In this document: piece by piece, positions 2,363 through 18,059 of the stretch
Position numbering within the stretch: the first letter of the stretch is position 1
Layout: the number at the start of each line of letters is the position of its first letter
NCBI GenBank assembly: GCA_052390275.1
Contig: JBQTHD010000019.1
Span: 36-24,035, forward strand
From: Acidimicrobiales bacterium
GTDB lineage: Bacteria; Actinomycetota; Acidimicrobiia; Acidimicrobiales; AC-14
Reading direction: 5' to 3'
DNA length: 24,000 bases
Program-made: the position numbers and the translations under genes
Notes under the pieces: model-generated
Seen by the model: the letters and a program-made list of their open reading frames with translations, nothing else
Told to the model about the DNA's origin: nothing
Databases searched by the model: none

Positions 2363-3610
2363 CTAAACCAAGGAGATCTCGTGACAGAAGGGACGGCCGT
2401 CGAAGGAGTGAGGGGCCGCGCCCGTCACGACCGCCTCGGCCAGGACGACATCGGTCGGTTGGGCCCACAGTCCCTTGAGGGCCGAGGCCAGCGGGTCGGC
2501 GACGTCGAGCCCCAGGGAAAGGAACGAGTACCCGGCCCCCACCCCCCGGTTGGCCGCCCCAACCACCAGGGCCCGGGCCACGTCCATGCGGTCGTCGGAG
2601 ACACAAAGGTGGACCAGGCTGAGGTTGCGCAGGGCCTGTCCGGGAGCGGGCAGGCGGGTGGCCCTGACCAGGGGTGCGGCCAGGTTGAACACCCGGCGCA
2701 CCATCGCCAGGCGGGAGGAGTAACCCGTGACCCGGAATCGCTTGAACGAGTCGGTGTCCCAGACCCCGGCCAGGCCGACCAGCCGCCCGGACCGATCGCG
2801 AACCAGCAGATAGGACGGGTAGTCGAGACCGGGGGCCGCATTGATGAAGGCGTCGAGGCCAGCCTCGTCCAGGCATCCCCTGAGTTGGCGCGACGGTGCC
2901 CACCGCCGCCACAGATCGGCCATCTCCGCCAGGTCGGACGGCGCCGCCGGGGCGGTGGACAACTCACCAGGCAAACGTCGCCGCAGGAGCAGGGGGAGGC
3001 TGTAGGCCCGGATGGTGGTCAGAGGGTGGACCCGGGGAAGCCCTCGCGGGCCCTCGAAGCGCTTCTCCATCGCCTGATTGCCGCCCAGCACGGTCATGAC
3101 CACCAGCCCCGTCGGGCCGACCGCCTCCAGGCAACGCTTGGTCGCCCAGCGGCTGAGGGCATCGCCGACGCCTTGGCCCCGGAACTGCGGAAGTACCTTC
3201 AGGTCGCTCACATACATCGCCGAGGTTGGCCGCCCGTCGTGGTGAAGACGTCGCAGGGCGACGGCAATGCAGCCCACTACACGGTCGTCAATCTGAACTA
3301 CTCCGGCCCGCCACGGCTGCGTCCACCCCGGGGGGAGCGAATCGTCATAATCCGCTGCCACCTCGGACTCGAGGCGGTTGAGAACGAAGAAATCCGGCGC
3401 CCGATCCGACGCCAGGGCGATGTCGCCCTCCATGGGACACGCAACCGAAAGCGCCACCAGATCGGGATTGTCCGCCTCCTGGCCCTCTCGTACCTCCCAG
3501 GCGTCGTGGCCTTTGCCGTCGGGATTGAAATGGTCGTTGACCAGTCCTTCAACCGCGTCGTCGTCCGCCGGGTCCGCCTCGTCACCGGCGGATCCAGGGA
3601 CAATCGTCAT
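2363..3610 (-). CDS. two-lobed GNAT-family acyltransferase (415 aa)
   Basis: Acyl-CoA-binding motif VLPQFRGQGVGDALSRWATKRC in the N-terminal half, and a second GNAT-sized lobe in the C-terminal half. The start ATG overlaps the upstream gene's stop (ATGA at 3607-3610). Confidence 0.65.
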   Translation of the reverse strand: MTIVPGSAGDEADPADDDAVEGLVNDHFNPDGKGHDAWEVREGQEADNPDLVALSVACPMEGDIALASDRAPDFFVLNRLESEVAADYDDSLPPGWTQPWRAGVVQIDDRVVGCIAVALRRLHHDGRPTSAMYVSDLKVLPQFRGQGVGDALSRWATKRCLEAVGPTGLVVMTVLGGNQAMEKRFEGPRGLPRVHPLTTIRAYSLPLLLRRRLPGELSTAPAAPSDLAEMADLWRRWAPSRQLRGCLDEAGLDAFINAAPGLDYPSYLLVRDRSGRLVGLAGVWDTDSFKRFRVTGYSSRLAMVRRVFNLAAPLVRATRLPAPGQALRNLSLVHLCVSDDRMDVARALVVGAANRGVGAGYSFLSLGLDVADPLASALKGLWAQPTDVVLAEAVVTGAAPHSFDGRPFCHEISLV

Positions 3611-4764
3611 CCGGTCACTCGGCAGGCGGCCAAACGGCGCTGCACGGCGCTGCGGTCGGCCAGAATCAGCGTCTCCCCGCGAGGGCGATCCTCCTCGATC
3701 CGGCCGGCCCAGGCGGGAGGTATCTCCGTCCAGCCCAGGAAGTTGCGGATCACCAGAGGGGCTCCGGCGACAGCGGTACGCACCACCTGGGCGAGCAGTT
3801 CATGCAGTTGCACGGCAGTCAGCCACTCGCAGATGTTCGACAGGGCGAAGCCGTCAACGCTCTGGGCCGGCTGCGTGGCCAGGTAGGACGCCACGTCGGT
3901 GGCCACCAGCGTGAGTCGCCCCAGGGCGTCATCGCCCCCTGAGGAAGCCGACGCGTCACTGCCCCGCCTGTCCGGGTCGGGGCTCAGGTAGGGAGGGACC
4001 CCGCCGGACTCGGTCCCTGGGTACCGCCCGGTGAGCATGTGGTGAACGAAGTAGTTGGTGGCGATCGGAATGGCAGTGAGGGTGTGGTCGGCTGCGGCGC
4101 GAAAATGGCGTGCGAAGCTGGGGTTGTCGACGTGGGCGAAGAAGGCCGGGTCATAGGCCCGGCGAAGGACCGCCCGGTTGAGCAGCACCGCGAAGAAGGC
4201 CCTCCAGCGTGGGGTGTCCCACTCGGAAGCGAACAGGCGCTGCTGGGCCTCGAGAGTAGGGGCGGCCAGCATGCGTTCGATCCGGCCGGTCGGGTGAACG
4301 CCGGTCCTGAGAGCGGCAACCACCGTGGCGATGAATCTCTCGGTCACGCCGGAGCCCAGCACCCCCTTGTCGATGGCCCGGGAGTGGAGGCTCCAATAGG
4401 AACGGGCGGCGGGGGACAACCCGGGGGCCAACCGAGAAAAGGCCCGACGCCGTTGTTCGGGCCGGGCGCCATGGCCACCCAGAAAGGCCGTCGCCTCCTC
4501 GTGCCCCAGTTCGCCAACAGCCAGGGCCTTCAGTTCCACCAGGTGGAGTTGGGTGCGGTTCAGGTCGACCGCCACCACCTGTCCCTGGCCCCGATGCAGG
4601 AGGGACAAAGCGGTGCACCCTCCTGACGCCACCACCACCACCCTCCCGTCGAGGGCAGGCGCCAGGACGTCGAGTTCGAGGAGGGGATCCTCCCTGACCT
4701 GGGCGAAGAACAGCCGGTCGTCCTGGCCTCCTCCCGGATCGAGCCGACGGATCGGCCCGGTCAT
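3607..4764 (-). CDS. DUF3419 / BtaA-like protein (homolog of SAM:diacylglycerol 3-amino-3-carboxypropyl transferase)
   Basis: N-terminal FAQVREDPLLELDVL followed by a Rossmann-like VVVVASGGCTALSLL, the pattern I associate with DUF3419/BtaA. ATG at 4764. Confidence 0.7.
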   Translation of the reverse strand: MTGPIRRLDPGGGQDDRLFFAQVREDPLLELDVLAPALDGRVVVVASGGCTALSLLHRGQGQVVAVDLNRTQLHLVELKALAVGELGHEEATAFLGGHGARPEQRRRAFSRLAPGLSPAARSYWSLHSRAIDKGVLGSGVTERFIATVVAALRTGVHPTGRIERMLAAPTLEAQQRLFASEWDTPRWRAFFAVLLNRAVLRRAYDPAFFAHVDNPSFARHFRAAADHTLTAIPIATNYFVHHMLTGRYPGTESGGVPPYLSPDPDRRGSDASASSGGDDALGRLTLVATDVASYLATQPAQSVDGFALSNICEWLTAVQLHELLAQVVRTAVAGAPLVIRNFLGWTEIPPAWAGRIEEDRPRGETLILADRSAVQRRLAACRVTG

Positions 4765-4829
4765 CTGCCGGTGCCCATTGGCTCAGCCATGGGTAGTGGT
4801 GTAACACCTTCGGGCGCGCGGAGCGGCGG

Positions 4830-6710
4830 ATGCAGTCGGGGCCCTTCGGTCGTACCATCGAACAGATGGTCAACCGGATGGACGTGCTGTCCGGATGGCT
4901 GACTGAGGGGAATCGGCCGGGCCGTGAACGCCCGGCTATCGAGCACGCTCAGAATCGCCAGCCTTCGCTCACCGGTTCGGGTCTGGTTGGTGCGGTCGAG
5001 GCCATTGACAACGACCTCGCCGCCCACGGTGCTGGCCCCGGCGACCGGGTGATCCTGTGGGACGAGCCCGGCCCCGCCTGGCTGGCCGCCTGGTTGGGAG
5101 CGCTTCGCCGGGGATGCGTGACAGTTCCCCTCGATTCACGCTTGACCGACGCCGAGGCTCGATCCCTGATCGACCGGTCCCAAGTGACCGCAGCGGTTAC
5201 CGGGCCGACGTTCGCCAGCCGCTGGGCGGCCGCGGGGCACCGACCGGCAATCTTGGCCTGGGAGCACGTATCTGCCGCCGCCGGTACCGGGCCCACCATC
5301 GAATCGAACCAAAGCGCCGAGCCCGGACAACTCCCGGAGTCCCCCGGGGCCCTGGAGGTTGCGGCGGCCGACCCGGTCACCTTGGTATGGACCTCAGGCA
5401 CCACGGGAGCGCCTCGCGGGGTGCTGCTCTCTGGCCTCAACCTGGCCTATGTCGTGGAACAGGTGGCGACGGGTCAGACCTTGAGCGCGTCCGACCGGTG
5501 GCTATCGGTTCTGCCCCCCAACCACCTCCTGGAGTTGGTGTGCGGGTTGCTGCCGGCCTTGTCCACCGGCGCCTCCACCATCGTGGCCGGGACACTCATG
5601 CCCGGTGACCTGGTCACCATGGTGGCCGAGAAGGCCATCACCCACATGGTGGTCGTCCCGGCCGTGCTGGCCGGACTGGCGAAATACCTGCAGGCGGGCT
5701 CCGCTGACGCCACGGCCGACGGTCGGTTGTCGAGCCTGAAGGCCGTCTACTGCGGCGGGGCGGCGCTGGACCCGGGTATCGCCCTGGCCATGGAACGGGT
5801 CGGCGTCGTCGTGTACCCGGGCTACGGATTGACCGAGACCAGCCCCGTGGTGGCCATGTGCGCCCCGGGGTCGATTCGATACGGGTCCGTCGGGCGGCCG
5901 TTGGCCGGTACCGAGGTCCGCCTCAGGGCGCCCGATCGCCAGGCAGCAGGGGCGCCCACAGATGACCCGGCGACGGCTGCAGAAGTGATCCGGGCCGAGG
6001 CGGACCATCCCGGCGAGGGGGAACTCTGCGTCCGCGGGCCTGGGGTGATGCTCGGCTACTGGAACGACCCCGAGGCCACCGCCAACGCCATCGATACCCA
6101 GGGATGGCTGGGAACGGGGGACCTGGCCACGATCGATCCCCAGGGTTTCATCACCATTACCGGACGGGTTTCGGTTCGGATCGTTCTCATCTCGGGGAAG
6201 AAGGTGGATCCCACCGAGGTTGAGAACGCGCTCACCGCCGATGGCACCTTTGCCGAGGCCTGCGTCCTTGCCTGGCCGCCGCCGGCCCGCCCCGGGGTCG
6301 GGGGCGGGGGCAGGGGCGGGGCGGCCAAGTCCGTCGAGGTGATCGGCATCGTTCGCCCCAGCGGTGATTACCTCCTCGCCGGCACCGGACCGGTATCTAG
6401 ACCGGTCCCTGGCACTTCGGTCGTTGCAACCGGGCCTGCTGAATGGGCAACCGAGGTTGCCACTGGCCTAGTGGGCCGGCTCAGCCCCTACAAGCGCCCC
6501 CATCGCATCCTGGTTCATCCCGGTCCTCTGCCGCGAACCGCCAAAGGCACCGTTCGGCGGGGCGAAGTCGCGGCCTGGCTGGCGCGGACTCTCGATCCCG
6601 CTGTCCAGGAACACCATGAGGCTGGAGACCCGACGACGACCCGAATTGACGACACCTCACGTCACCGGATTGTCGACACGGCAAGCGGATCGTCCGGGAC
6701 GGCTGGCTGA
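4830..6710 (+). CDS. adenylate-forming acyl ligase (fatty acyl-AMP/acyl-CoA/acyl-ACP ligase family)
   Basis: Motifs LVWTSGTTGAPRGVLLS, YPGYGLTETS, GWLGTGDLATID and C-terminal PRTAKGTVRR. Start uncertain (4830, 4866 or 4878). Its stop overlaps the next start (TGATG 6708-6712). Confidence 0.85.
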   Translation: MQSGPFGRTIEQMVNRMDVLSGWLTEGNRPGRERPAIEHAQNRQPSLTGSGLVGAVEAIDNDLAAHGAGPGDRVILWDEPGPAWLAAWLGALRRGCVTVPLDSRLTDAEARSLIDRSQVTAAVTGPTFASRWAAAGHRPAILAWEHVSAAAGTGPTIESNQSAEPGQLPESPGALEVAAADPVTLVWTSGTTGAPRGVLLSGLNLAYVVEQVATGQTLSASDRWLSVLPPNHLLELVCGLLPALSTGASTIVAGTLMPGDLVTMVAEKAITHMVVVPAVLAGLAKYLQAGSADATADGRLSSLKAVYCGGAALDPGIALAMERVGVVVYPGYGLTETSPVVAMCAPGSIRYGSVGRPLAGTEVRLRAPDRQAAGAPTDDPATAAEVIRAEADHPGEGELCVRGPGVMLGYWNDPEATANAIDTQGWLGTGDLATIDPQGFITITGRVSVRIVLISGKKVDPTEVENALTADGTFAEACVLAWPPPARPGVGGGGRGGAAKSVEVIGIVRPSGDYLLAGTGPVSRPVPGTSVVATGPAEWATEVATGLVGRLSPYKRPHRILVHPGPLPRTAKGTVRRGEVAAWLARTLDPAVQEHHEAGDPTTTRIDDTSRHRIVDTASGSSGTAG

Positions 6711-7711
6711 TGGTCGCCGTATATCGGGATCCGGCCTACCTCGATGGGATCGGATGGTGTCTGGGAAGCCAGCGCCAAACGGTTCCTGAGGCCCTGGCCG
6801 CCGGTCGGGTCCGGGCCAGCGCGCAGGCGTTCGCGTCGGCCGGCTTCGTCAGCCATCACGTCTGCAGCGACGGTGAAACGGCCTACGACCTGGCCCTGGC
6901 CGCCGCCACCCAGGCCGGGGAAAAGGCGATGACGGGCGTGGGGGCCATCATCTATTCCACGTGCCTGCCGACCAACGCCAACCTGGCCGGGCCCGCTGAG
7001 TTCGCCTCCAGCCGGGACGTGAAGCACCTCATGGACTTCCCCGCCAGCCGCCTGCAGCGAGACCTGGATCTCCCCGATGCGTTCGTGATCGGGCTTACCC
7101 AACAGGCCTGTACGGCCATGTTGGGGTCACTTCGCCTGGGCACCGCCCTGCTCGGCTCCGAAGCCGGCTTGGATGCGATCCTGTGCGTCACCGCCGACCG
7201 GTTCCCCCCGGGGGCCCTTTACGAACAGGCCTACAACCTGGTCTCCGACGGGGCCGCTGGCTGTGTGGTCTCCCGGAGCCCCGGTCGGTACCGGATCCTT
7301 GCCGCCCACCATCTGACCCGGGGTGGCCTGGTTCACGCCGGCGACGACGAGACCATTGGCGCCTTTTTCGCCGCCACCGGGCAGTTGATGACAGAACTGA
7401 TGGAGGGCTGCGGACTCCAGCCTGCCCAGGTTCACCGGGTGGTGACGCAGAACACCGACCCACGGGCGTGGCGAATCTTGGGGCCCACGCTGGGATTCGG
7501 TCCGTCACAGATCTGGGCGCCCACTCTGGCCGAGGTCGGTCACGTGATCAGCGCTGACAGCCTCATCAACCTGGCCGCACTTGACGACGTCGACCGTGCC
7601 GGGGGAGGGGCCCAACCGGGCGATCTGATCATCCTGGTCATGGCCGGTTACGGCCTGAATACCCAAGCCGTCCTGCTCGAGCGGGTGGCCGCCGCCGGTC
7701 CGGCGGCCTGA
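6710..7711 (+). CDS. KAS III (FabH)-like enzyme with a non-canonical catalytic triad
   Basis: Thiolase-fold pattern: GLTQQACTAMLGSL (Cys nucleophile context), VSDGAAGCVV, and C-terminal VMAGYGLNTQAVLLE. The FabH HQAN motif reads VTQNT and the GNTSAAS motif reads GHVISAD (alignment by eye). Confidence 0.75.
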   Translation: MVAVYRDPAYLDGIGWCLGSQRQTVPEALAAGRVRASAQAFASAGFVSHHVCSDGETAYDLALAAATQAGEKAMTGVGAIIYSTCLPTNANLAGPAEFASSRDVKHLMDFPASRLQRDLDLPDAFVIGLTQQACTAMLGSLRLGTALLGSEAGLDAILCVTADRFPPGALYEQAYNLVSDGAAGCVVSRSPGRYRILAAHHLTRGGLVHAGDDETIGAFFAATGQLMTELMEGCGLQPAQVHRVVTQNTDPRAWRILGPTLGFGPSQIWAPTLAEVGHVISADSLINLAALDDVDRAGGGAQPGDLIILVMAGYGLNTQAVLLERVAAAGPAA

Positions 7712-8604
7712 TGAGCACCCCTTCCGGCCGGGCAGGCCAACCTTTACCGGAGTTGGCCCGACGCCTCGCCGCGGCTTCGGTCCGCAGCCGCAGGGATCCC
7801 GAGACCGCCATCGACTGGCCGGCCTCGATCGATCCCGCCGCCTGGTTCATGCGCCCGGAGTGGGTCTCGGCCTACGACACCCCGTGGTGGGAGGCCCTCG
7901 ACACCCCGTCCCGCCAGCGCCTCAGCTTCTACGAGGCCGTCAACTTCTTCAGCCTCAACATTCACGGCGAGCGCCAACTCATGGCCGGCCTGGCACGGCG
8001 TCTGTATGCGCCGGGCCTGGAGGGGGTGAGCCCGTACATCCATCACTTCCTGGCCGAGGAGAACAACCACAGCCTGTGGTTCGCCACCTTCTGCACCCGT
8101 TACGCCGGCGCCATCTATCCCGACCGCGCTGTCACCTTTCCCAGCCATGCGGCTCCCGGTCAGGACGACGTTTGCTTCTTCGCCCGCGTGGTGATCTTCG
8201 AGGAGATCGTCGACCGCTACAACCAGGCCATGGCCGCGGACGACCGGGTAGAACCGGTGGCCCGCCAGATCAACGCCAACCACCATGCCGAAGAGATCCG
8301 CCACCTCGCCTTCGGGCGCCGCCTGGCACTCGAGTTGTGGGCGCAGTGGGCGCCGACCTGGAGTGACGAGGTCCGCGCTGAGGTGAGGACGCACCTCGAC
8401 GGCTTTGTCGAGGACACCTGGCGATCGTTCTACCGGGCCGAGGCCTACCGGGATGCCGGCTTGGCCGAGCCATGGGCCCTTGCACGGCGGATCTGGTCAT
8501 CCCCGGCCGCTGTGGCCCATCGGGAACGGGTGAGCGCCGAAGCCCTGGCTCCGCTGGTATCGGCCGGAGTCCTGACCCTGCCCGGACCCCCGGCCCCAGG
8601 CTGA
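7711..8604 (+). CDS. AurF-type di-iron carboxylate oxygenase
   Basis: Four-helix di-iron ligand pattern: NIHGERQ (E), LAEENNHSLWF (ExxH), VIFEEIVDRY (E), HHAEEIRHLAFG (H-x3-E-x2-H, the extra His typical of AurF/CmlI-type N-oxygenases). TGATG overlaps at both ends. Confidence 0.65.
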   Translation: MSTPSGRAGQPLPELARRLAAASVRSRRDPETAIDWPASIDPAAWFMRPEWVSAYDTPWWEALDTPSRQRLSFYEAVNFFSLNIHGERQLMAGLARRLYAPGLEGVSPYIHHFLAEENNHSLWFATFCTRYAGAIYPDRAVTFPSHAAPGQDDVCFFARVVIFEEIVDRYNQAMAADDRVEPVARQINANHHAEEIRHLAFGRRLALELWAQWAPTWSDEVRAEVRTHLDGFVEDTWRSFYRAEAYRDAGLAEPWALARRIWSSPAAVAHRERVSAEALAPLVSAGVLTLPGPPAPG

Positions 8605-8873
8605 TGACCTCGGCCGCATCCGCCGAAACCATCCGCCAGGCCCTGATCGGATGGCTGGTCAAACACAACCCGGGCCTTGAACCGGCCGGGGTGTCCGATG
8701 ACTCCCGCCTGATCGAGAACCGCTGGCTCACGTCGGTTCAGATCCTGGACCTCCTCGGCCTGCTGGAGGAGTTGCGCGAGGAGGCCATCCCACTCGACGC
8801 GCTGCGCCCCGGGTCCTTCGCCACCATCGGAGTGATCATCGACACCTTCTTCGGACCCGCGGCTCGATCATGA
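8604..8873 (+). CDS. carrier protein 1 (ACP/PCP-like, 89 aa)
   Basis: Size and helix pattern of a carrier protein. Candidate phosphopantetheine Ser in RWLTSVQILDLLGLLEE. The start ATG at 8604 overlaps the upstream stop, and its own stop overlaps the next start (ATGA 8870-8873). Confidence 0.65.
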   Translation: MTSAASAETIRQALIGWLVKHNPGLEPAGVSDDSRLIENRWLTSVQILDLLGLLEELREEAIPLDALRPGSFATIGVIIDTFFGPAARS

Positions 8874-9751
8874 ACCTGCCGGCCGGTCAACCCGGGACAC
8901 CCGACCCCCTGGTGGCAGCCGGGCCGGGGGGGGTGGCCGTCTTGACCCCGGACCTGGTGGCATTCCTCGATGGCCTCGATGCCCACCTGGTGGCACTGGC
9001 TCGCCGATGGTGGGCGGAGGAGTTCCGGTTCGGGCCGTTGCTGGCGGCCGACGTGGTGGATCGCATGGACTGGCTGACCGGGTTTCCCCAGTTGGCCACC
9101 TTCCCCGCCACCCTCGACGCCGCACCCGACAACCTCGACGCCTTCTGCGCCGGGCCGCCCCGATCCGACGACGGGACCATCCGACTCACCTCCCTCGCCC
9201 CATTGGCCCAGGTCCTGGCCCCGGCTGCCTGCTATCACCTTTACGACCACCTTGCCGGCGGAAACTTCGACACCCCGCAATGGTTCACCGTTCGGGCGCC
9301 CTGCTTTCGGCGGGAGGAGGACTATGTGCCCCTGGAGCGCCAGTGGGCCTTCAACATGCGCGAGATCGTGTGCGTCGGTCCGCCCGGGCCAACTTCGGAC
9401 TTCGTTGACGAGGCCACCCTGATGATCTCCGACCTGGCCCGCCATCTCGGACTCGACGTCGACTGGAACCGGGCGACTGACCCGTTCTTTAGACCCACCC
9501 GTCACCCGGGTTACCTGCTGCAGTTGGTGGACCCCACCAAACACGAGTTGCTGTTTCAGAACCGTCTGGCCCTGGCCTCGACCAACCTGCACCACGACCA
9601 CTTCGGACGGGCCTTCGCTCTGACCTCCGACGGAAAGCCGGCCCGAACAGCCTGCGTGGCCTTCGGCCTGGAAAGGTGGGCGGCGGCCATGATGGCCACC
9701 CACGGCTCTCCGGATCGTTGGCCGGTGCCGCCGGCCGCCGCCGGTCCGTGA
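8870..9751 (+). CDS. truncated class II aminoacyl-tRNA-synthetase-like protein; probable amino acid:[carrier protein] ligase
   Basis: 293 aa, catalytic-core size only. SerRS-like motif 2 RAPCFRREE...RQWAFNMREIVCVG, and motif 3-like TACVAFGLERWAAAM. Cys/Glu/Cys (AACYH, REIVC, TACVAF) sit where a Zn site would lie in methanogen-type SerRS homologs. No tRNA-binding arm. Coupled to an upstream carrier protein. Confidence 0.6.
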   Translation: MNLPAGQPGTPDPLVAAGPGGVAVLTPDLVAFLDGLDAHLVALARRWWAEEFRFGPLLAADVVDRMDWLTGFPQLATFPATLDAAPDNLDAFCAGPPRSDDGTIRLTSLAPLAQVLAPAACYHLYDHLAGGNFDTPQWFTVRAPCFRREEDYVPLERQWAFNMREIVCVGPPGPTSDFVDEATLMISDLARHLGLDVDWNRATDPFFRPTRHPGYLLQLVDPTKHELLFQNRLALASTNLHHDHFGRAFALTSDGKPARTACVAFGLERWAAAMMATHGSPDRWPVPPAAAGP

Positions 9752-10941
9752 CTTATCGCGTACGCCCGGACCCCGACAGCGTCCGCTCCGGATCAAGGGA
9801 CCGCAAGGTTGACCCCGACCCGCTCGGCGGTGCCGGAGCGGAGACCGACGCTCGGCTGGCTGGGCATCGCGAGCCCTGGGACGATCGGGTCGTACTGGTG
9901 ACGGGGGCATCGGGATACCTGGGCGCGCTGGTGGCAGCCAGGTACCGGGCCGCGGGGGCGACCGTCATCGCCCATGGCCGGCGGCCGGTGCCGATACCAC
10001 AGGGTTCGGGGCAATGGGTGTCCGTGGTGGGAGACCTGACCAGCGACGACGCTTTCGCCGGACTCAAGCCATCCTGGCGGCGCCAGATCACCGCCGTAGT
10101 CCACGCAGCAGCCCTGACCCGCTTCGACGCCACCGCCGAGGAGGCCGACGCCGTCAACGTCGAAGGGACGCGCCGAGTGTTGGACCTGGCCTTGGCGTGT
10201 GAGAACCTGACCGCCTTCGGGCACTTGAGCACCGTGTACGCCTCGGGGCTGCAGGGCGGCACCATCGCCGAGGAACTGAGGCCGGCTACCGCCGGGTTCG
10301 CCAACCACTACGAGCGGTCCAAGTCCGAGTCCGAGCATCTGGTGGCTCTGGCCGGCCCGCCGAGGTGGCGCATCCTGCGGGCCGCCACCGTTATCGCCGA
10401 CGGCGAGGACGGAACCGTCAGCCAGTACAACGCTTTCCACGAGACCCTCAAACTGTGGTTCGGCGGACTGCTCCCGCTCATCCCCGGCCGGGCGGCCAGC
10501 CCGCTCTACCTGACCACCGGCAACTTCACGGCGGAAGCCATAGTCGCCCTGATGGATCATCCGGCGGCCGGCGGGCAGGTGTATCACCTGACCCCCACCA
10601 CCTCGGCCTGCCTCACGCTGGCCCAGGCCGTCGCCCTGGTGTCGGGGACCTTCGGAGAGAGCGCCGGATACCGAAGGCGGGGAGTCCTGACCCCGCCGCT
10701 GGTGGATTGGGCGAGCTTCGAACTCCTCGGCGCCGGGGTGGAGGCCTTCGGCGGGGCCCTGGTCCGGCGGTCCCTGGCCGCCCTCACGCCCTTCGCCCGC
10801 CAACTGGGAGTGGAGAAGGACCTTGTCAACCAGGCCTTTTGCGCGCTGCACCCGCGACAGCATCCGGACCTCGGCCCCCTGGTCGTGGCGGTGTGCCGTC
10901 ATCTGATGGCAACGTCGTGGGGACGCCGTGAGGCCGGATGA
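9748..10941 (+). CDS. thioester-reductase-type SDR (NAD(P)H-dependent, terminal-reductase-like)
   Basis: VLVTGASGYLG Rossmann motif, VVHAAALTRFD, NVEGTRRVLDLA, LSTVYASG, YERSKSESE (YxxxK). I place the start at the GTG at 9748 overlapping the upstream stop (GTGA). The track start at 9676 would overlap the previous gene by 76 nt. Confidence 0.7.
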   Translation: MTYRVRPDPDSVRSGSRDRKVDPDPLGGAGAETDARLAGHREPWDDRVVLVTGASGYLGALVAARYRAAGATVIAHGRRPVPIPQGSGQWVSVVGDLTSDDAFAGLKPSWRRQITAVVHAAALTRFDATAEEADAVNVEGTRRVLDLALACENLTAFGHLSTVYASGLQGGTIAEELRPATAGFANHYERSKSESEHLVALAGPPRWRILRAATVIADGEDGTVSQYNAFHETLKLWFGGLLPLIPGRAASPLYLTTGNFTAEAIVALMDHPAAGGQVYHLTPTTSACLTLAQAVALVSGTFGESAGYRRRGVLTPPLVDWASFELLGAGVEAFGGALVRRSLAALTPFARQLGVEKDLVNQAFCALHPRQHPDLGPLVVAVCRHLMATSWGRREAG

Positions 10942-11641
10942 ACTCATCGAGGTGGCCGAGTGGGCGTCGGCCGCCCTGGGGTGGGAGGTCCGTCTGGCCA
11001 TGACCACAGACGGCCTGGCCCCCGGGAACATGACGGCGGGGGAGCGGCGGCAGTTTCAGGTATTCGACTCCCCGCAGCGCCGGGCGGACTGGTCCCGGGG
11101 CAGGGCTGCGCTGAAGAACCTTCTGGGCGGGGCCGATACCTCGACGGTGACCTTCCCCCACCCCTGGCTGTCGATCTCGCACTCCGGGTCGGTGGCCGTG
11201 GCCGCCGCTCTTCCCGGGCTGGGGGACGCCGCCTGCGGGCCTGGACTGGGAGTGGACTATGAGGCTTCGCGCTCCGTCGACGACCGGGCGATCCGGTTCT
11301 TCCTCCACCCCCATGAGGTTCCGGAGGCGGGTGCGAGCCGTTCCCCCGGCGGCGATGCCACGTTCCGTCCACTCGGATTCCCGGGGGCCGGTTGCCCGCC
11401 GAGGTCGACCGACCCGCCGGCGGGGTGCCTGCTGGCCGCATGGACTGCCAAAGAGGCTCTCTTCAAAGCGTCCGGTCCCGCCAACCAGGGACGGACTCTC
11501 CTCGATGTCCACCTCACCGGCCCGGCTGCGCCCATGGGGCGGGCGATCGGGCCTGCCGGCTCGGATATGGCCTACGTGAGCGCCGTGGTGTCTTCCGGAT
11601 GCCTGTCGGTGGCCGTGGGCCGGAACCGGCCGGTCCGGTGA
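10928..11641 (+). CDS. Sfp-type 4'-phosphopantetheinyl transferase
   Basis: LSISHSGSVAVAA, GVDYE and AWTAKEALFKA motifs. The GTG start overlaps the upstream gene by 14 nt, and internal starts are possible. Confidence 0.8.
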   Translation: MRPDELIEVAEWASAALGWEVRLAMTTDGLAPGNMTAGERRQFQVFDSPQRRADWSRGRAALKNLLGGADTSTVTFPHPWLSISHSGSVAVAAALPGLGDAACGPGLGVDYEASRSVDDRAIRFFLHPHEVPEAGASRSPGGDATFRPLGFPGAGCPPRSTDPPAGCLLAAWTAKEALFKASGPANQGRTLLDVHLTGPAAPMGRAIGPAGSDMAYVSAVVSSGCLSVAVGRNRPVR

Positions 11642-12378
11642 AGCGGGGCAGCACAGAACGGGCGGCCGGGCCGGTCGGCGACGACGAACACTGGCTGCTC
11701 AGCTACTACCGGACGTCGGAGATCAACGGGTCCCTGTTCTTCGGCCGGCTGGCCCGCAGCATGCGCCCGGGTCCCATCCAGCACGACCTGACCCGGCACT
11801 TTGCCGATGAGGCCCAACACGCCTGGTACTGGACAGACTGCCTTGCAAAGCTGGATCTTCGACCCATCAAGCTCTCCGACGCCTACCAGGACCAGTACCT
11901 GGAGGCGGCCGGCCTACCCATGAACCTGATGGAGGTTCTGGCCATCACCCTGGTCTTCGAGCGACGGGTGGTGAACCAGTACACCCGTCACCTGGCCGCA
12001 CCCACCATCCGCCCCGAGGTGGCCACCACCATTGCCACCATCATGGCCGACGAGCGCTGGCACGTCCGCTGGGTCCGAGACGCCCTGGAACGGATGGAGG
12101 AGCGCTACGGCGCCTCCACGGTGGCCGAGACCCTCCATCGCTACAAGGAGGCCGACCGGGAGGTCTACGCCCACACCCTGGCCGAGCACGAGGCCCGACT
12201 GGCCTTCCTGTTCGAGCGTCAAAAAGGGGTTCCGTCGCCGGTTCAGCCGGCCGAGATGAGGATCGAGGATCGGGTCGGGACCATGGGCGACATCGATCCA
12301 CATCGGTCAGGGCAACCCGACCCGCCAAGCGCGCAGTCAACCAGCCCGCGATCACTACGCAACGAGGAGCGGACATGA
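11638..12378 (+). CDS. ferritin-like di-iron carboxylate protein (246 aa), unrelated in sequence to 7711-8604
   Basis: E / ExxH / E / ExxH pattern: SEINGSLFF, ADEAQHAWYW, LVFERRVV, MADERWHVRW. I place the start at the GTG at 11638 (GTGA overlap with the PPTase stop). The upstream part of the track ORF (11392-) lies inside the PPTase gene. Confidence 0.7.
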   Translation: MKRGSTERAAGPVGDDEHWLLSYYRTSEINGSLFFGRLARSMRPGPIQHDLTRHFADEAQHAWYWTDCLAKLDLRPIKLSDAYQDQYLEAAGLPMNLMEVLAITLVFERRVVNQYTRHLAAPTIRPEVATTIATIMADERWHVRWVRDALERMEERYGASTVAETLHRYKEADREVYAHTLAEHEARLAFLFERQKGVPSPVQPAEMRIEDRVGTMGDIDPHRSGQPDPPSAQSTSPRSLRNEERT

Positions 12379-12611
12379 ACCCCACCCCCGAGGACGTCCG
12401 GCGGCACATGGCCAAACTCCTTGAGCGGCCCGAGGCCAAGGTGGCCACAGCCGCCGTCCTGACCGACCTGGTAGCCGACAGCTTCCGCTTGGTGGAACTG
12501 GCCATCGAACTCCAGGACGACTTCGACGTGGTCCTGACCCAGGCCGATCTCTCCGTGATCAACACCGTGGGCGACCTGGCCCAGTTGGTGGCCTCTAGGG
12601 CGCGGGGCTAG
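12375..12611 (+). CDS. carrier protein 2 (ACP, 78 aa)
   Basis: LTDLVADSFRLVELAIELQDDFDV, a classic DS(F/L) phosphopantetheine site followed by an acidic helix. ATGA overlap at 12375-12378, with GAGGAG at 12364-12369. Confidence 0.8.
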   Translation: MNPTPEDVRRHMAKLLERPEAKVATAAVLTDLVADSFRLVELAIELQDDFDVVLTQADLSVINTVGDLAQLVASRARG

Positions 12612-13008
12612 ATGCCGGGGTGGAGAGCGAGCGCAGTTGGCCCATGAGGCCGACCACCAGGTCCCGCATGGAGAAGACGCCCAGCAGGTCACCGTCGTCG
12701 TCCACGACGACCAGGTGACGGAAGCCCTTCTCCCGCATGGTCCGGGCCGCCTCGAGCATGTCGGTCTCGGGCTCCGCAGTCATCAGACGGCCGGAGACGA
12801 AGTCGGCCACCGTCAGGCCTTCGTAGCCGCCCTCCCGGGCCACCGCACGCAGGGCGTCCCTGTCGGTGATAAGGCCGGTGGGTCGGCCGTTGGTGACCAC
12901 CACCGCCGAGCCCACACCCCTTTCCACCATCAACACCGCCGCCTCGACGAAGGACTCCGTGGCCTCGACTGTGAGTACCGCCCGGCTCATCAGCGAACCG
13001 ATCTCCAT
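12595..13008 (-). CDS. CBS-pair domain protein
   Basis: Two CBS-like units (SLMSRAVLTVEATESFVEAAVLMVERGVGSAVVV... and RLMTAEPETDMLEAARTMREKGFRHLVVVDDDGDLLGVFSMRDL). I place the start at the ATG at 13008, which has GAGGAG upstream. It overlaps the end of carrier protein 2 by 17 nt in convergent orientation. Confidence 0.85.
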   Translation of the reverse strand: MEIGSLMSRAVLTVEATESFVEAAVLMVERGVGSAVVVTNGRPTGLITDRDALRAVAREGGYEGLTVADFVSGRLMTAEPETDMLEAARTMREKGFRHLVVVDDDGDLLGVFSMRDLVVGLMGQLRSLSTPASSPAP

Positions 13009-13025
13009 GGGTCTCCTCTGTGCTT

Positions 13026-13080
13026 GATCGTCCCGACTTGATCGTCCCGGTTTGACCGTCCCGGTTTGACCGTCCCGTGG
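13026..13080. repeat. non-coding tandem repeat, 14 bp x 4
   Basis: GATCGTCCCGACTT / GATCGTCCCGGTTT / GACCGTCCCGGTTT / GACCGTCCCGTGG, 18-72 nt upstream of the CBS gene start. The period is not a multiple of 3. Confidence 0.9.
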
Positions 13081-13272
13081 ATGGGCCGGCAAATGGGGTG
13101 GAAAACGGCATCCGCAAGGACCGGCTGACCCTACCAAAGGGCCTGGTTGAGAGCCCGGTGAGTGTCGCCTCCCCTTTCAACGGGGCTGCCCCCCCGCTGG
13201 CACCGGGCAACGAGAAGGGGGCGGAGCGGACCTTCCTGGCGGGTGCTGGGCCTACGGGGCCGGGCGCAGAAG

Positions 13273-13290
13273 TTGTGAACGTGAACACAA
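13273..13290. promoter_or_regulatory. imperfect Rex-type operator upstream of the NuoF-like gene
   Basis: TTGTGAA-CGTG-AACACAA versus the Rex consensus TTGTGAA-N4-TTCACAA: the left half is perfect and the right half matches 5/7. It lies in an AT-richer patch 27 nt upstream of the ATG. TAGTTT (13305-13310, TANNNT) sits 6 nt before the ATG with no SD, which suggests a leaderless transcript. Confidence 0.4.
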
Positions 13291-13316
13291 TCACCAGCCA
13301 GGACTAGTTTGCTTCC

Positions 13317-14729
13317 ATGCCATTGGTCCACCGGGTCCTGTATCCCCGGGCCATCGTGTCCCTGGAGGACCATGTGGGCCGGGGTGGAGGCAAAGGCCTG
13401 GCCGCCGCCCGGGACATGACGCCCGATCAGATCATCGAGGCGGTGTTGGCCTCGGGCCTGCGAGGCCGAGGGGGAGCGGGCTTTCCCACCGGCCGCAAGT
13501 GGCGCACGGTGGCCGACAACGCGGCCGGGGTCGGCCCCCCGACGGTGGTTGTCAACGCAGCGGAGGGAGAGCCGGGAACCCTCAAGGACCGCACCATCCT
13601 GCGCCGCAACCCCTTTGGAGTGGTGGAGGGCGCGTTGGTGGCAGCCCGGGCCACCGGGGCTGACCTGATCGTCTTCGCCACCAAGGAGGCGTTCTCCGGC
13701 GAGGTCGACCGGCTTCGGGAGGCGGTGGAACAGGCCGAGGACGCCGGTTGGTCCGAAGGCGTGGCCATGACCGTCTTTGAGGGCCCCGACGAGTACCTCT
13801 ACGGCGAGGAGAGCGCGCTGCTGGAAACCATCAGCGGACGCTGGCCCTTCCCCCGGGTGGTGCCGACCTTTCGCCGGGGGGTCACCGGGGGCGAGGGTCC
13901 CACCCCGCCGGCGCTGGTCAACAACACCGAGACCCTGGCCAACGTTGCCCGGATCGTGGCCCGAGGATCGGCCTGGTTCCGCACCATGGGTACCGAGGAG
14001 TCCCCGGGCACCGCCGTCTGCACCGTCACCGGCGACACCCACCATCACGGCGTCGGCGAGGTCCAGATGGGCACACCCTTGGGGGAGGTGATCGAGTTGA
14101 TCGGCGGCGGGCCCAGGGAGGGTCGCAAGATCAAGGCGGTCATGTCCGGGGTGGCCAACGCCATCATGGGCCCCGAAGCCCTCGACGCCCCGGTCAGCTA
14201 CGAGGGGTTGCGGGGCGCGGGCAGCGGCATCGGGTCCGCCGGGTTCATCGTCTTCGACGAAACAGCCGACATGGTGGCGGTCGCGGCGGGGGTATCGAGG
14301 TTCTTGGCGGTGGAGTCCTGCGGCCAGTGCGCGCCCTGCAAGATCGACGGGGCCAGCCTGGCCCAGACGCTGTTGAAGATTGCGGCGTCGCAGGCCATCG
14401 ACCACGACCGCCAGTTGCTCGACCGCAAACTCTCCACGGTGGCCGACCGGGCCCGCTGCTTCTTGGCCACCCAGCAGCAGGTGATGATCACCAGCATCCT
14501 GTCCAGGTTCCCCGAAGAGTTCGAGGGCCGAATGGACCGCAGCCGCGAACCGGTGTCCTCCGCCCTGATCTCTGAACTGATCGACATCCGCAACGGCAAA
14601 GCCGTTCTCGACGAACGCCATCGCCGCAAGCAGCCCGACTGGACCTACAACAAGCGGGACTCGGGCACCGTCCCGGTTGAGCGCTACGCCAGCCTTACCC
14701 CCCCCTGGGGCCTCGGCGCCCTCGCCTGA
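13317..14729 (+). CDS. stand-alone NuoF-like NADH-binding FMN/4Fe-4S flavoprotein
   Basis: GLRGRGGAGFPTGRKW, NAAEGEPGT, the cluster motif ESCGQCAPCKIDG, and a later C in RARCFL. No nuoE/nuoG neighbours are present. Confidence 0.85.
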   Translation: MPLVHRVLYPRAIVSLEDHVGRGGGKGLAAARDMTPDQIIEAVLASGLRGRGGAGFPTGRKWRTVADNAAGVGPPTVVVNAAEGEPGTLKDRTILRRNPFGVVEGALVAARATGADLIVFATKEAFSGEVDRLREAVEQAEDAGWSEGVAMTVFEGPDEYLYGEESALLETISGRWPFPRVVPTFRRGVTGGEGPTPPALVNNTETLANVARIVARGSAWFRTMGTEESPGTAVCTVTGDTHHHGVGEVQMGTPLGEVIELIGGGPREGRKIKAVMSGVANAIMGPEALDAPVSYEGLRGAGSGIGSAGFIVFDETADMVAVAAGVSRFLAVESCGQCAPCKIDGASLAQTLLKIAASQAIDHDRQLLDRKLSTVADRARCFLATQQQVMITSILSRFPEEFEGRMDRSREPVSSALISELIDIRNGKAVLDERHRRKQPDWTYNKRDSGTVPVERYASLTPPWGLGALA

Positions 14730-15201: not shown

Positions 15202-16260
15202 CTACGGAGCCGCCGGCTGAGCCGTACGGGCCGGGCCGGTCGACGCTTCGTCCAGGTCCCCGCGCTGGGCCATCCACAGCAACACCACCAGGGCGGGAAT
15301 GAACAGGACGGCCCCGATGGCCAGGCTGATGAGCATGGCCACCAGCGCTGCCCGGCTGCCGGCGGCGGCTTCGATGCTCAACTGCCCAACCAGCATCTCC
15401 GGGTACTGCCCGGCCGCCCATCCCCACAGCACGGCACCCACGGCGACGGCCGCGCTCCATCGGCTGAGCCGGTAGCGACGGGCCGCCAGGAGCCAGAAGG
15501 AGGTTCCCGCCCCCGCCGCCGACACAACCAGCAGCGGCAGAGCCCGACCCGAAAGACCGTCGAAGAGTCGGGGGGCGTCGGAGGCGAGCACGGCGATTCC
15601 GACCAGGGCCACCACCCCCGATAACACCCCCGTGGCCATGGCCCGGCGCCGGAACGCCTCCGCCAGAAGGGTCTCCTGGCGACGGGCGGCCTCGGCGGTC
15701 AGGTAGGTGGCCGCCAGATAGGCGCAGACCAGCACGGCCATCGTCCCCCCCAACATCGAAGTCGGGTTCCACCAGGAGCCGATGGGATCGATGGGAGCGG
15801 CCGCCGCTCCCCGTTGGTAGGCGGTCACCCGCCCGGAGGCCACCGCTCCCACCACCGTCCCGAGGAAGAACGGAGTCAGGACAGACGAGAGGGCAAAGGC
15901 CACGCCGTAGGTCCGCTTGGTGGCGATCGGCACCACCGCCTTGCGAAAGGCAAACGCCGAGCCCCTGGCGATGATGCCCACAGCCGCCAACGTGAGGGGG
16001 ATGTACAACGTTCCCATGACCGCCGCGAAGGCGGAGGGAAACCCGCTCCACAAGATGACCAGGGCGAAGATCAGCCAGACGTGGTTGGCCTCCCACACGG
16101 GCCCGATGGACTTCTCGATGAGGGCCCGGGCCGGCGCCCCCGAGCGGGTGCGGCCCGAGAGCAGGTCCCAGATTCCGGCTCCGAAGTCAGCCCCGCCGAA
16201 GACGGCGTAGAGCGTGCCTCCGGCGAACATCACCACCAGCACCCCCTCGGCCAGGGTCAT
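15202..16260 (-). CDS. cydB: cytochrome bd oxidase subunit II
   Basis: I place the start at the ATG at 16260 (MTLAEGVLVVMFAGGTLYAVFGGADFGAGIWDLL, the typical CydB N-terminus). Polytopic membrane protein located downstream of cydA. Confidence 0.9.
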   Translation of the reverse strand: MTLAEGVLVVMFAGGTLYAVFGGADFGAGIWDLLSGRTRSGAPARALIEKSIGPVWEANHVWLIFALVILWSGFPSAFAAVMGTLYIPLTLAAVGIIARGSAFAFRKAVVPIATKRTYGVAFALSSVLTPFFLGTVVGAVASGRVTAYQRGAAAAPIDPIGSWWNPTSMLGGTMAVLVCAYLAATYLTAEAARRQETLLAEAFRRRAMATGVLSGVVALVGIAVLASDAPRLFDGLSGRALPLLVVSAAGAGTSFWLLAARRYRLSRWSAAVAVGAVLWGWAAGQYPEMLVGQLSIEAAAGSRAALVAMLISLAIGAVLFIPALVVLLWMAQRGDLDEASTGPARTAQPAAP

Positions 16261-16288
16261 TCGTGGGCCCCGTTCGCCCCGGCGAGAA

Positions 16289-17785
16289 TCATTTGAGGTC
16301 CGCCTCAGGGGCCATCGAAGCCATTTGGACCTCCGCCTCAGGTCGGGCGGCCGGATCTGTCGACGACAATGGCGATGACGCGGGGGGTCCGCCGGATTCC
16401 TCCGGGCCGATGGGGGCAGGTTCGGACTCGGGTGCCCCGGAGGCACCGCCAGGTCGGATCATCCGCCGCAGAACGGTGATCACCGCCACCGTCAGGGCGA
16501 CGTAGACCACGATGAGCCCGTAGTAGCCAAACCGGATCCCCGGGGCCCGGGTCACCGCCTCGTCCACCCGCATCACTTCGTAGACGATCCAGGGTTGGCG
16601 GCCGACCTCGGTGGCCACCCATCCCGCCTCCATCGCCACCGCGGCCAGCGGGCCGGCTGCGGCCGCCGCCCACAGGAAGACCCGGGCAGCCGGCAGGTCC
16701 CGCCGCCGCCACCACGACCATCCCAACCAGACACCCAACCCCAGGAGAAAGAAGCCAATGGCCACCATCACCTGGAAGGCCGCCCGAACGATCGGCACCG
16801 GCGGGCGCTCGTCGGCGGGGACCTGGTCCAACCCGGCCACCACCGCGTCAACGTCACCGTGGGCCAACCACGACAGCCCGCCGGGGATCTCCAGGCCGTA
16901 GCGAACCTCGCCGTCGATGTAGAGACCGCCAATGGTCAGAGGAGCGCGAGGTTGGGTCCGCAGCACACCCTCCAGAGCGGCCAGCTTCACCGGCTGATTT
17001 TCGGCCAGGAAGCGGGCGGCCCAGTCGCCGACCACGATCTGGGCCGGGGTCAGGGCGGCGGCAAAGGCGAAGGGAAGAAGGAATCCAATCCGGTTGTACC
17101 GGTCTCGCCGACCCCGCAGCAGGCCCCAGGCGTAGATCGATGCGACCAGGAACCCGGCCACCATCAGCGCAGCCAGCACCATGTGGGTGGTCTGCACCGG
17201 AGTGGCCGGATTGAACATGGCCGCCACCGGATCGACGTTTCGGACCTGGCCGGTTTCGCGATAGTGGTCGATGTCGAAGCCGGTCGGCTGGTTCATCCAG
17301 GCGTTGGCCGTGACCACGAACCAGGCCGAGGCAATCCCGGCGATGGGCACGGGCAGGCCCACCAGCAGATGCTGGCGAGGGGTCAGGCGGCGGCGGCCGT
17401 AGAGGTAGATCCCCAGGAAGATGGCCTCCAGGAAGAAGGCCACACCCTCGATGGCAAAGGGAAGTCCCCAGACGTCGCCGAAGGTACCCATGAGGTCAGG
17501 CCAGAGGATTCCAAGCTCAAAAGAGAGAATTGTGCCGGACACGGCGCCGACGGCAAAGAGCACGGCGAAGGCCTTGCTCCACCGGTAGGCCAACTCGGCG
17601 AACACCGGGTCCCCGGTGCGGATACCCCGCCATTGGGCCAGGAGGATAAGGATGGGGAAACCCACCCCGAGGCTGGCAATGACGATGTGCCAACCCAGAG
17701 AAAGCGCCATCTGCTGGCGGGCGGCCCACAGATTGGCCTCAAGGACCGAGTCGCTCGTCGCCAGGAGGTGGGCCAGGCCCATCAT
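16289..17785 (-). CDS. cydA: cytochrome bd oxidase subunit I
   Basis: AGWVATEVGRQPWIVY signature, a multi-TM profile, and an N-terminal WAARQQMALSLGWH resembling the usual CydA start. ATG at 17785 (the track start at 17806 is TTG). Carries a Pro/Ser/Glu-rich C-terminal tail. Confidence 0.9.
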   Translation of the reverse strand: MMGLAHLLATSDSVLEANLWAARQQMALSLGWHIVIASLGVGFPILILLAQWRGIRTGDPVFAELAYRWSKAFAVLFAVGAVSGTILSFELGILWPDLMGTFGDVWGLPFAIEGVAFFLEAIFLGIYLYGRRRLTPRQHLLVGLPVPIAGIASAWFVVTANAWMNQPTGFDIDHYRETGQVRNVDPVAAMFNPATPVQTTHMVLAALMVAGFLVASIYAWGLLRGRRDRYNRIGFLLPFAFAAALTPAQIVVGDWAARFLAENQPVKLAALEGVLRTQPRAPLTIGGLYIDGEVRYGLEIPGGLSWLAHGDVDAVVAGLDQVPADERPPVPIVRAAFQVMVAIGFFLLGLGVWLGWSWWRRRDLPAARVFLWAAAAAGPLAAVAMEAGWVATEVGRQPWIVYEVMRVDEAVTRAPGIRFGYYGLIVVYVALTVAVITVLRRMIRPGGASGAPESEPAPIGPEESGGPPASSPLSSTDPAARPEAEVQMASMAPEADLK

Positions 17786-17970
17786 GGACCGGTCCACCGG
17801 CGGCAAATGCCGTCAAGCCCGCCTCGAACCGCCGTTTTCGCCCGGGCCGCACCATCACCACCAGGCCCAGGCATCGACAACGAAGCAGTGGGGGAGAACC
17901 CCGCGACCCCCCATCCGAGACTGGCCAAATACTCCATGGCGAACCTCCCGGGCGGACCCTAACACCCCTC

Positions 17971-17988: not shown

Positions 17989-18059
17989 GTCTCTTCCCGG
18001 GTTTTGGGCGCCTGGCTGCGGCCCGGATCGCCCGGCGGCCGGCCATTAGCGTGCAGGCG

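Follow-up and report, generated by a model that had tools for sequence, protein, structure and literature searches.

By gene content, the lipothrenin (lit) and ham/pvf pathways are the closest known systems to the locus analysed here, an eleven-gene unit at positions 2363–12611 of a 24,000-nt stretch of an Acidimicrobiales metagenome-assembled genome (MAG). This whole stretch is referred to below as the window, and feature nucleotides are counted in window positions. The lit cluster of Streptomyces aureus LU18118, whose product is an N-hydroxy-N-acyl threonine, encodes a fatty acyl-AMP ligase (FAAL), an acyl carrier protein (ACP), a ketoacyl-ACP synthase III (KAS III), an R2-like di-iron protein and the AurF-like LitN required for N-hydroxylation, together with the essential LitL, a 311-aa 'hypothetical' protein encoded after the 85-aa LitK (PMC10616846). 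In contrast to the window unit, lit has no reductase, and its product keeps the carboxylate; it contains no DUF3419, GNAT or ICMT gene, and its LitB acts as a true FabH. LitK and LitL resemble the first carrier protein (CP1) and the adjoining ligase of the window by size, order and annotation only (GenBank ON169987). The analogy to ham/pvf had already been drawn in an original prediction made from the window sequence alone, and it is borne out by HamC, an AurF-like enzyme that oxidises valine tethered on HamD, after which the product is released reductively (PMC11659414). The ham/pvf systems, which lead to fragin, valdiazen and pyrazine N-oxides, have in common with the window a (predicted) AurF-like N-oxygenase, a carrier-tethered amino acid and release by a thioester reductase. 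However, their loading, carrier and reductase functions reside in one nonribosomal peptide synthetase (NRPS) of A-T-R architecture, whereas the window distributes them over three separate proteins and uses a loader resembling an aminoacyl-tRNA synthetase (aaRS). The window cassette also lacks HamA/B/E-type genes and adds acyl-supply and KAS III-like genes.

Loaders of this kind are exemplified by the amino acid:[carrier protein] ligases Bll0957 and Atu2573 (PDB 3MEY, 4H2S), reportedly described by Mocibob et al. in 2010, and the group is said to have been characterised biochemically and structurally in 2010–2013. No physiological product for aaRS-like carrier-protein ligases was found in the searchable literature. 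Our analysis suggests that the window encodes an NRPS-independent, two-carrier pathway to an N-oxygenated, fatty-acylated amino-alcohol or aldehyde derivative, a reading that we hold with about even confidence, and that the product is probably a cell-envelope lipid or a lipophilic signal. The parts of the cassette all come from known enzyme families, and its logic resembles that of known carrier-protein pathways. The unit comprises the following features:

2363–3610, minus strand: GNAT-domain acyltransferase, 415 aa, second gene of the divergent operon (Acetyltransf_1, 6e-7)
3607–4764, minus strand: DUF3419 protein, 385 aa (PF11899, 6e-51)
4765–4829, between both operons: divergent intergenic region of 65 bp, presumed shared promoter region
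4830–6710, plus strand: adenylate-forming (AMP) ligase, fatty-acid-ligase-like, 626 aa (AMP-binding, 2e-64)
6710–7711, plus strand: KAS III-like thiolase-fold enzyme, 333 aa (ACP_syn_III_C, 2e-6, and predicted fold)
7711–8604, plus strand: AurF-family di-iron oxygenase, 297 aa (PF11583, 2.8e-38)
8604–8873, plus strand: CP1, presumed aminoacyl carrier, 89 aa (position and conserved Ser)
8870–9751, plus strand: aaRS-like, amino acid:[carrier protein] ligase-like protein, 293 aa (NF005479, 1e-40; Bll0957, 5.7e-35)
9748–10941, plus strand: stand-alone short-chain dehydrogenase/reductase (SDR) of the NAD_binding_4 / thioester-reductase type, 397 aa (NAD_binding_4, 7e-23)
10928–11641, plus strand: Sfp-type phosphopantetheinyl transferase (PPTase), 237 aa (ACPS, 1.3e-6)
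11638–12378, plus strand: ferritin-like di-iron protein, 246 aa (invariant E...ExxH...E...ExxH)
12375–12611, plus strand: acyl carrier protein 2 (ACP2), 78 aa (PP-binding, 8e-8)

The nine plus-strand open reading frames (ORFs) at 4830–12611 are connected by successive start/stop overlaps, and all eight junctions were read: TGATG at 6708–6712, 7709–7713 and 8602–8606, ATGA at 8870–8873 and 12375–12378, GTGA at 9748–9751 and 11638–11641, and a 14-nt overlap of the SDR and PPTase genes at 10928–10941. Third-position GC of these ORFs was 0.79–0.90 compared to 0.71–0.74 in the antisense ORFs 8738–9910 and 9793–11031, in a window with a GC content of 0.66–0.74. The minus-strand DUF3419 and GNAT genes overlap each other by 4 nt and begin 65 bp from the first plus-strand gene. 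The original prediction had described one coupled nine-gene unit, quoted motifs from its products and assigned each to a family; the eight overlaps matched its positions, every motif was found in the predicted proteins, and all nine assignments were backed by hidden Markov model (HMM), PDB or fold evidence. Its limits of the unit stood for these nine genes and had to be widened for the DUF3419 and GNAT genes (2363–4764), which it had only hinted at and which also belong, so that the whole unit counts eleven genes. As it had further claimed, there was no condensation domain, no ketosynthase/acyltransferase (KS/AT) pair and no pyridoxal phosphate (PLP) enzyme among the window ORFs scanned, nor was a ketosynthase/chain-length factor (KS/CLF) pair found there; judged by this gene content, the unit is not a canonical NRPS, type I or II polyketide synthase or fatty acid synthase. 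Promoter/terminator and Rfam scans of the window gave no matches, and no sigma-70-like site was found in 4765–4829, where a sigma-70 model says little for a high-GC actinobacterium. The plus-strand operon ends at a convergent CBS-domain gene (12595–13137, minus strand), whose ORF, stop codon included, shares 17 nt with the end of the ACP2 gene, with no terminator-like hairpin between them.

The aaRS-like ligase, identical to NCBI ACT4OS_05815, matched the NCBIfam model for amino acid--[acyl-carrier-protein] ligase (NF005479) at 1e-40 with 139.7 bits against a cut-off of 357, and by this score it is a divergent subfamily and not an equivalog of Bll0957. In the PDB, Bll0957 aligned across ligase residues 19–286 at about one third identity (E 5.7e-35), and a type-2 seryl-tRNA synthetase (SerRS) was matched at 7e-7 over its catalytic core alone (residues 213–504). 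By these alignments, the protein corresponds to the class II catalytic core of a methanogen-type SerRS and carries no tRNA-binding domain. Residues C121, R147, E149, E165, C262 and R269 did not vary among 16 diverse members and coincide with the residues aligned to them in Bll0957; R147, E149 and R269 represent the class II motifs, motifs 2 and 3 both being present, and the Cys/Glu/Cys positions common to both proteins are, we assume, the zinc ligands of Bll0957. A dedicated small carrier gene with a candidate phosphopantetheinyl Ser, CP1 (8604–8873), adjoins the ligase gene. CP1 had no Pfam match and a weak match to AsbD in NCBIfam; in 78 of 83 loci a protein of its family (83–92 aa) is encoded immediately before the ligase, and at least 90% of 80 aligned copies retain the Ser of the 'LTS(V/L)Q' motif. 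From this homology and gene arrangement, the ligase probably loads an amino acid onto CP1 in place of an NRPS adenylation domain, a role that had been predicted and is now backed by the similarity to Bll0957 and by the adjoining carrier. Bll0957 and Atu2573 share with the window protein the fold, length class, absence of a tRNA-binding domain and adjoining small carrier gene. However, the Bll0957-type ligases occur in operons of ACP, acyl-CoA dehydrogenase, ligase and DUF1839, whereas the window subfamily lies behind an AurF-like gene and a carrier protein, and this different genomic context indicates that the window ligase represents another subfamily.

The AurF-like protein exceeded the gathering score of PF11583 by a wide margin (132.1 bits vs 29.6, E 2.8e-38), and residues E87, E117, H120, E164, H191, E195 and H198, a seven-ligand pattern, were invariant. 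A single-sequence PDB search with this protein gave no matches. In profile-to-PDB alignment at a weak E of 0.06, H191/E195/H198 corresponded to the H-x3-E-x2-H stretch of AurF ('HLRDETAH') and E164 to the preceding Glu, while the matching R2 protein was without the first His of this stretch. Because of the Pfam membership, the ligand pattern and the gene context, the enzyme is probably an N-oxygenase of the CP1-bound amino acid.

The gene context extends beyond the window cassette. An AurF-like/carrier/ligase triad in the same order accompanies more distant ligase relatives on plasmids and in other clusters, with identities to the window proteins of 34–40% for the oxygenase, 32–34% for the carrier and 34–37% for the ligase. 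This recurrence ties the oxygenase to a tethered amino acid. In two clusters, on Tistrella mobilis pTM2 and on a plasmid of Streptomyces sp. NBC_01431, the triad is followed directly by a nitronate monooxygenase, a partner that, as genomic context, supports oxidation at nitrogen and could mean that a nitro intermediate, or nitrite, is formed there by way of a carrier protein; the genes lie at 10896–13844 and 8772–12057 of these plasmid loci (L088 and L091, respectively). On another Streptomyces plasmid the triad stands beside a type II KS/CLF set. The triad thus behaves as a mobile module and suggests that oxygenase, carrier and ligase are reused as a set to make N-oxidised amino-acid building blocks. 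PGAP labels the Streptomyces members of the ligase family 'hypothetical'. In Polyangium sp. y55x31 (locus L043, 8825–20798), the partner of the triad is an NRPS: after the AurF-like and aaRS-like genes come one for a class I methyltransferase and those of an NRPS with several modules (C-A-T, C-A...), so that the aaRS-like loader may feed a canonical NRPS there.

By sequence, the KAS III-like enzyme was matched weakly (ACP_syn_III_C, 2e-6; one PDB sequence match, E 5e-5). Its AlphaFold model (pLDDT 91.5) gave DpsC, NatS, FabH, ChlB3, CerJ and BioZ as top folds, with fold-match E values of ~1e-20 (2.5e-20 for the FabH/DpsC/ChlB3/CerJ fold). C134 was invariant, the His position of the FabH 'PHQAN' motif was occupied by an invariant Q247 and the Asn position of the FabH 'GN' motif by an invariant H278. 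In FabH the His/Asn pair serves malonyl decarboxylation, and a Cys-His-Asn triad is needed for decarboxylative condensation. Judged by these residues, the window enzyme is not a canonical decarboxylating FabH and is probably an acyltransferase instead of a decarboxylating condensing enzyme; since the His/Asn pair is missing, we read the coupling as acyl transfer and not as Claisen chemistry. The earlier proposal that the amino-acid and fatty-acyl units are joined through this enzyme was thus upheld for the fold and Cys134, but the condensing-type His/Asn pair that it would imply was not there, making acyl transfer the likelier reaction. DpsC, ChlB3 and CerJ, which are among the best structural neighbours, share the thiolase/FabH fold and the retained nucleophile. 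Enzymes of this group move acyl groups between carrier proteins or onto O or N acceptors without condensing. The window family differs from them in its invariant Cys/Gln/His set, and its sequence similarity to solved members is marginal, which suggests an unusual thiolase-fold active site.

The SDR matched PF07993 (NAD_binding_4) at 7e-23 and carries TGASGYLG at residue 52 and YERSK at residue 188. It scored 79 bits against a cut-off of 213 for the thioester-reductase model TIGR01746 (3e-22), and the terminal reductase of MxaA (myxalamid, 4u7w) was among its few PDB matches (4e-6). The protein stands alone, with no fusion to a T domain, and we infer from these matches that it performs reductive release.

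The remaining plus-strand genes appear to supply the acyl chain. The best NCBIfam match of the AMP ligase was to long-chain-fatty-acid-CoA ligase (1e-68), with the motifs TSGTTGAPRG, GYGLTETS and a C-terminal PRTAKGTVRR; its C-terminal subdomain also contains a Gly/Pro-rich insertion (~residues 495–560) and a long C-terminal tail. ACP2 matched NCBIfam ACP models at 1e-9, with its DSF motif at residue 35, and in loci L006 and L087 a PPTase of the ACPS superfamily is fused to ACP2. The ferritin-like protein had no significant family match, yet it is the most conserved of the set (46–76% identity), with E28, E58xxH61, E99, E108 and E139xxH142 invariant and a model of a helical bundle (pLDDT 82) with a conserved core of ~190 aa. 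The window copy ends in a non-conserved 55-aa tail (residues ~190–246, 12200–12378; pLDDT mostly <60), which is absent from the other Acidimicrobiales copies and from most other homologues. Seven Micromonosporaceae loci, in which the order is KASIII-like, AurF-like, ligase, SDR, DUF3419, GNAT, lack the genes for the AMP ligase, ACP2, the PPTase and the ferritin-like protein altogether, and this joint absence indicates that the four genes form a separable acyl-supply sub-module. The original prediction had noted a second, unrelated ferritin-like di-iron protein; its presence is confirmed, and as to its role the joint gene loss indicates that it probably modifies the ACP2-bound acyl chain and not the amino acid. 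A role as an aldehyde-deformylating oxygenase was set aside, as the gene is lost together with those for ACP2, AMP ligase and PPTase and not with the SDR gene, even though the ferritin-like and SDR genes are adjacent in most loci.

We next consider how widely the cassette occurs. The ligase had 360 database relatives at ~45–60% identity, mostly from MAGs of Acidimicrobiales and other Actinomycetota, and relatives were present in at least 577 GTDB species when one genome per species was scanned. The eleven window proteins were mapped by tblastn and all-against-all ORF clustering onto 83 non-redundant loci, consisting of the best 80 loci and loci fetched by exact protein look-up. Besides CP1 (78 of the 83), the SDR was present in 79 loci, the AurF-like protein in 76, the KASIII-like in 75, the ferritin-like in 68 and the AMP ligase in 62. 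The KASIII-like, AurF-like and SDR genes occurred together, in the same order and on the same strand, in 72/83 loci, the recurring order being KASIII-like, AurF-like, carrier protein, aaRS-like, SDR, ferritin-like. Actinobacterial carriers include Acidimicrobiia, Streptomyces, Catellatospora, Kineosporia, Nocardia, Mycobacterium simulans and Thermomonospora; others are Nostoc/Stigonema (Cyanobacteria), Obscuribacterales, Polyangiaceae (Myxococcota), Bdellovibrionota, Nitrospira (Nitrospirota), Acidobacteriota, Planctomycetota and Omnitrophota. Conservation of gene order across these phyla is far above chance. The label 'orphan' given to the set in the original prediction therefore had to be dropped, with a cassette syntenic in at least 72 loci of many phyla and a ligase subfamily in hundreds of species. 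Its statement that no characterised pathway was recognised fared better: we found no characterised cluster or paper describing the cassette in the searchable literature, where searches returned only lipothrenin and ham/pvf as partial analogues. An MmpL exporter gene lies beside the cassette in 16 loci (e.g., Thermomonospora cellulosilytica) and an ABC transporter gene in others, neighbours that fit with a lipophilic exported product.

The divergent gene pair of the window connects the cassette with head-group chemistry. The DUF3419 protein scored 174 bits against the Pfam cut-off of 28.2 and had no function-bearing match in NCBIfam or the PDB. DUF3419 is the family of the betaine-lipid synthase BtaA/BTA1, and a BTA1 homologue is annotated as DUF3419 (PMC10685587). 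The window protein, a clear member at 6e-51, is a candidate SAM-dependent 3-amino-3-carboxypropyl transferase. It differs from BtaA/BTA1 in being coupled or fused to GNAT and not to a BtaB-type N-methyltransferase and in being set within a carrier-protein pathway, and diacylglycerol, the BtaA/BTA1 acceptor, cannot be assumed for it. At least 20 loci have a DUF3419 gene beside the cassette, and in the seven Micromonosporaceae (Catellatospora-type) loci this gene comes immediately after that of the SDR; GNAT was found in 16 loci, in 16/16 of them with DUF3419, and in loci L002/L003 both are fused as a single 756-aa protein. This adjacency, co-occurrence and fusion indicate that DUF3419 and GNAT belong to the pathway. 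An ICMT-family membrane methyltransferase was present in 37 other loci (e.g., L004 5714–6313 and L087 17980–18549), and no locus had both genes, with 37 carrying ICMT only and 20 DUF3419 only (0 / 37 / 20 / 15; Fisher p = 1e-8, in a test that takes no account of shared ancestry). This pattern suggests that DUF3419 and ICMT are alternative SAM-dependent alkylations of one acceptor. In a related Acidimicrobiales genome (L002/L003, 13405–15479), two genes follow ACP2 with overlapping stops, one of the Exo_endo_phos family (sphingomyelinase/phosphatase type) and one for a Na+/H+ exchanger, and both may be extra operon members there.

Taken together, the families, residues and synteny from which all steps were deduced are consistent with the following route, which in essence keeps the scheme of the original prediction, lengthened and with its coupling step reinterpreted. 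The Sfp-type PPTase would prime CP1 and ACP2, and the aaRS-like ligase would adenylate an amino acid and then thioesterify it onto CP1, where the AurF-type enzyme would oxidise its alpha-amino group at least as far as the hydroxylamine. Meanwhile, the fatty-acid-type ligase would charge ACP2 with an acyl chain that the ferritin-like protein might alter, and Cys134 of the KAS III-like enzyme would accept this acyl group and pass it to the CP1-bound (hydroxy)amino acid. The thioester-reductase-type SDR would free the product as an aldehyde or alcohol, after which DUF3419 could put a SAM-derived 3-amino-3-carboxypropyl group on a hydroxyl of the product and GNAT could acylate the new amine; elsewhere an ICMT-type methyltransferase would act instead, often with an MmpL or ABC exporter near.

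Several points weigh against this route. The window sequence derives from a MAG, and both the ligase and the SDR score under the curated NCBIfam cut-offs; the SDR could be a ketoreductase or an epimerase. The PDB profile matches of the AurF-like protein are all marginal, at E 0.06–0.14 for AurF/CmlI and 0.009–0.05 for R2/R2lox, and on such matches the protein is as distant from the former as from the latter, with hydroxylation or desaturation as possible reactions. Fold matches of the ferritin-like protein are weak and generic (PaaC/PaaA, aldehyde-deformylating oxygenase and CmlI, E ≥ 4.5e-3). We know of no citable characterised precedent for the Cys/Gln/His site, and N-, O- or C-acylation would be possible with it. 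Homology of LitL to the window ligase is a guess from protein sizes and gene order, and the Fisher test on DUF3419 and ICMT ignores phylogenetic non-independence.

The coupling step could also form a carbon–carbon bond. If the AurF-like enzyme made an alpha-nitroacyl thioester, its nitronate carbon could attack acyl-Cys134 in a non-decarboxylative Claisen reaction, and the SDR would convert the resulting long-chain 2-nitro (or 2-amino) 3-oxo thioester to a sphingoid-like or nitro-alcohol lipid backbone. Such C-acylation would explain why the KAS III-like enzyme keeps its Cys without the His/Asn pair, which a pre-activated carbon nucleophile does not need, and the two clusters in which the triad adjoins a nitronate monooxygenase imply a nitro/nitronate intermediate there; moreover, bacterial ceramide clusters combine an ACP and an acyl-ACP synthetase with a reductase of SDR type and an acyltransferase resembling GNAT. 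We nevertheless consider it unlikely: a nitronate Claisen reaction by a thiolase-fold enzyme is, to our knowledge, without precedent, the structural neighbours include the pure acyltransferases DpsC, ChlB3 and CerJ, and lipothrenin, the sole related natural product that we found, is joined through an amide/hydroxamate. A sphingoid-base route through an aminomalonyl carrier protein was down-weighted, as it needs a decarboxylative condensation for which the His/Asn pair is missing.

Both di-iron proteins might instead hydroxylate or desaturate carbon, at the amino-acid beta-carbon or on the acyl chain, and the product would then be a plain N-acyl amino alcohol or aldehyde (lipoamino alcohol), later tailored by DUF3419 and GNAT. 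Di-iron enzymes of the ferritin-like fold often do C–H chemistry, the AurF-like profile fits R2/R2lox-type proteins at least as well as AurF/CmlI, and the ferritin-like protein weakly resembles PaaAC and aldehyde-deformylating oxygenase. However, the Pfam AurF match (2.8e-38), the extra His that aligns with AurF and is absent in R2, the link of the triad to nitronate monooxygenase and the requirement of LitN for lipothrenin N-hydroxylation make a pathway with no N-oxygenation decidedly unlikely. Highly improbable, in our view, is that the triad serves chiefly to provide nitrite or a small reactive N-oxide unit, with the lipid genes next to it having an unrelated function. The triad does occur alone with nitronate monooxygenase in Tistrella and on the Streptomyces plasmid, but the window has no nitronate monooxygenase, its nine genes overlap start to stop, and KASIII-like and SDR genes flank the triad in 72/83 loci. 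The N-oxygenating, N-acylating two-carrier pathway with reductive release is therefore the reading that we retain.

The cassette gives the aaRS-like carrier-protein ligases a concrete physiological context, as it places a distinct subfamily of them in a self-contained operon that is conserved and occurs in hundreds of species. Doubtful as a whole is the broader claim that it represents an NRPS- and PLP-independent route to a new class of N-oxygenated lipoamino alcohols, comprising the first physiological role of aaRS-like ligases, a homoserine-ether lipid and a new coupling catalyst. If it were true, DUF3419 and GNAT would give Acidimicrobiia and some actinomycetes a two-chain, phosphorus-free homoserine-ether membrane lipid, and the KAS III-like enzyme would be a new thiolase-fold coupling catalyst, possibly forming a C–C bond with a nitronate. 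Acidimicrobiia are abundant and mostly uncultured, and the DUF3419 gene suggests their link to betaine-lipid-type head-group chemistry. Some carriers of the cassette are culturable, namely Thermomonospora cellulosilytica, Catellatospora, Streptomyces, Nocardia stercoris and Mycobacterium simulans.

Genes on either side of the unit were considered separately. On the minus strand at 489–2323, the window encodes a weak IDO-like protein and a plastocyanin-type cupredoxin, the gene of the latter following that of GNAT after 40 bp; on the plus strand, 13317–14729 encodes a NuoF-like flavoprotein that stands alone. These flanking genes, together with cydAB on the downstream side, were ruled out as members of the unit, as they are not conserved beside the cassette elsewhere. 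A 616-aa ORF at 19315–21165 (plus strand) matches ThyX (Thy1) starting only past residue 400, and its long N-terminal part had no family match. Within 15202–17806 (minus strand) and 17616–19307 (plus strand), the ORFs of the cytochrome bd genes cydB and cydA overlap on paper by ~160 nt, and an M20-peptidase ORF overlaps the 5′ end of cydA by ~190 nt; the true starts of these overlapping ORFs probably lie downstream of their first start codons.

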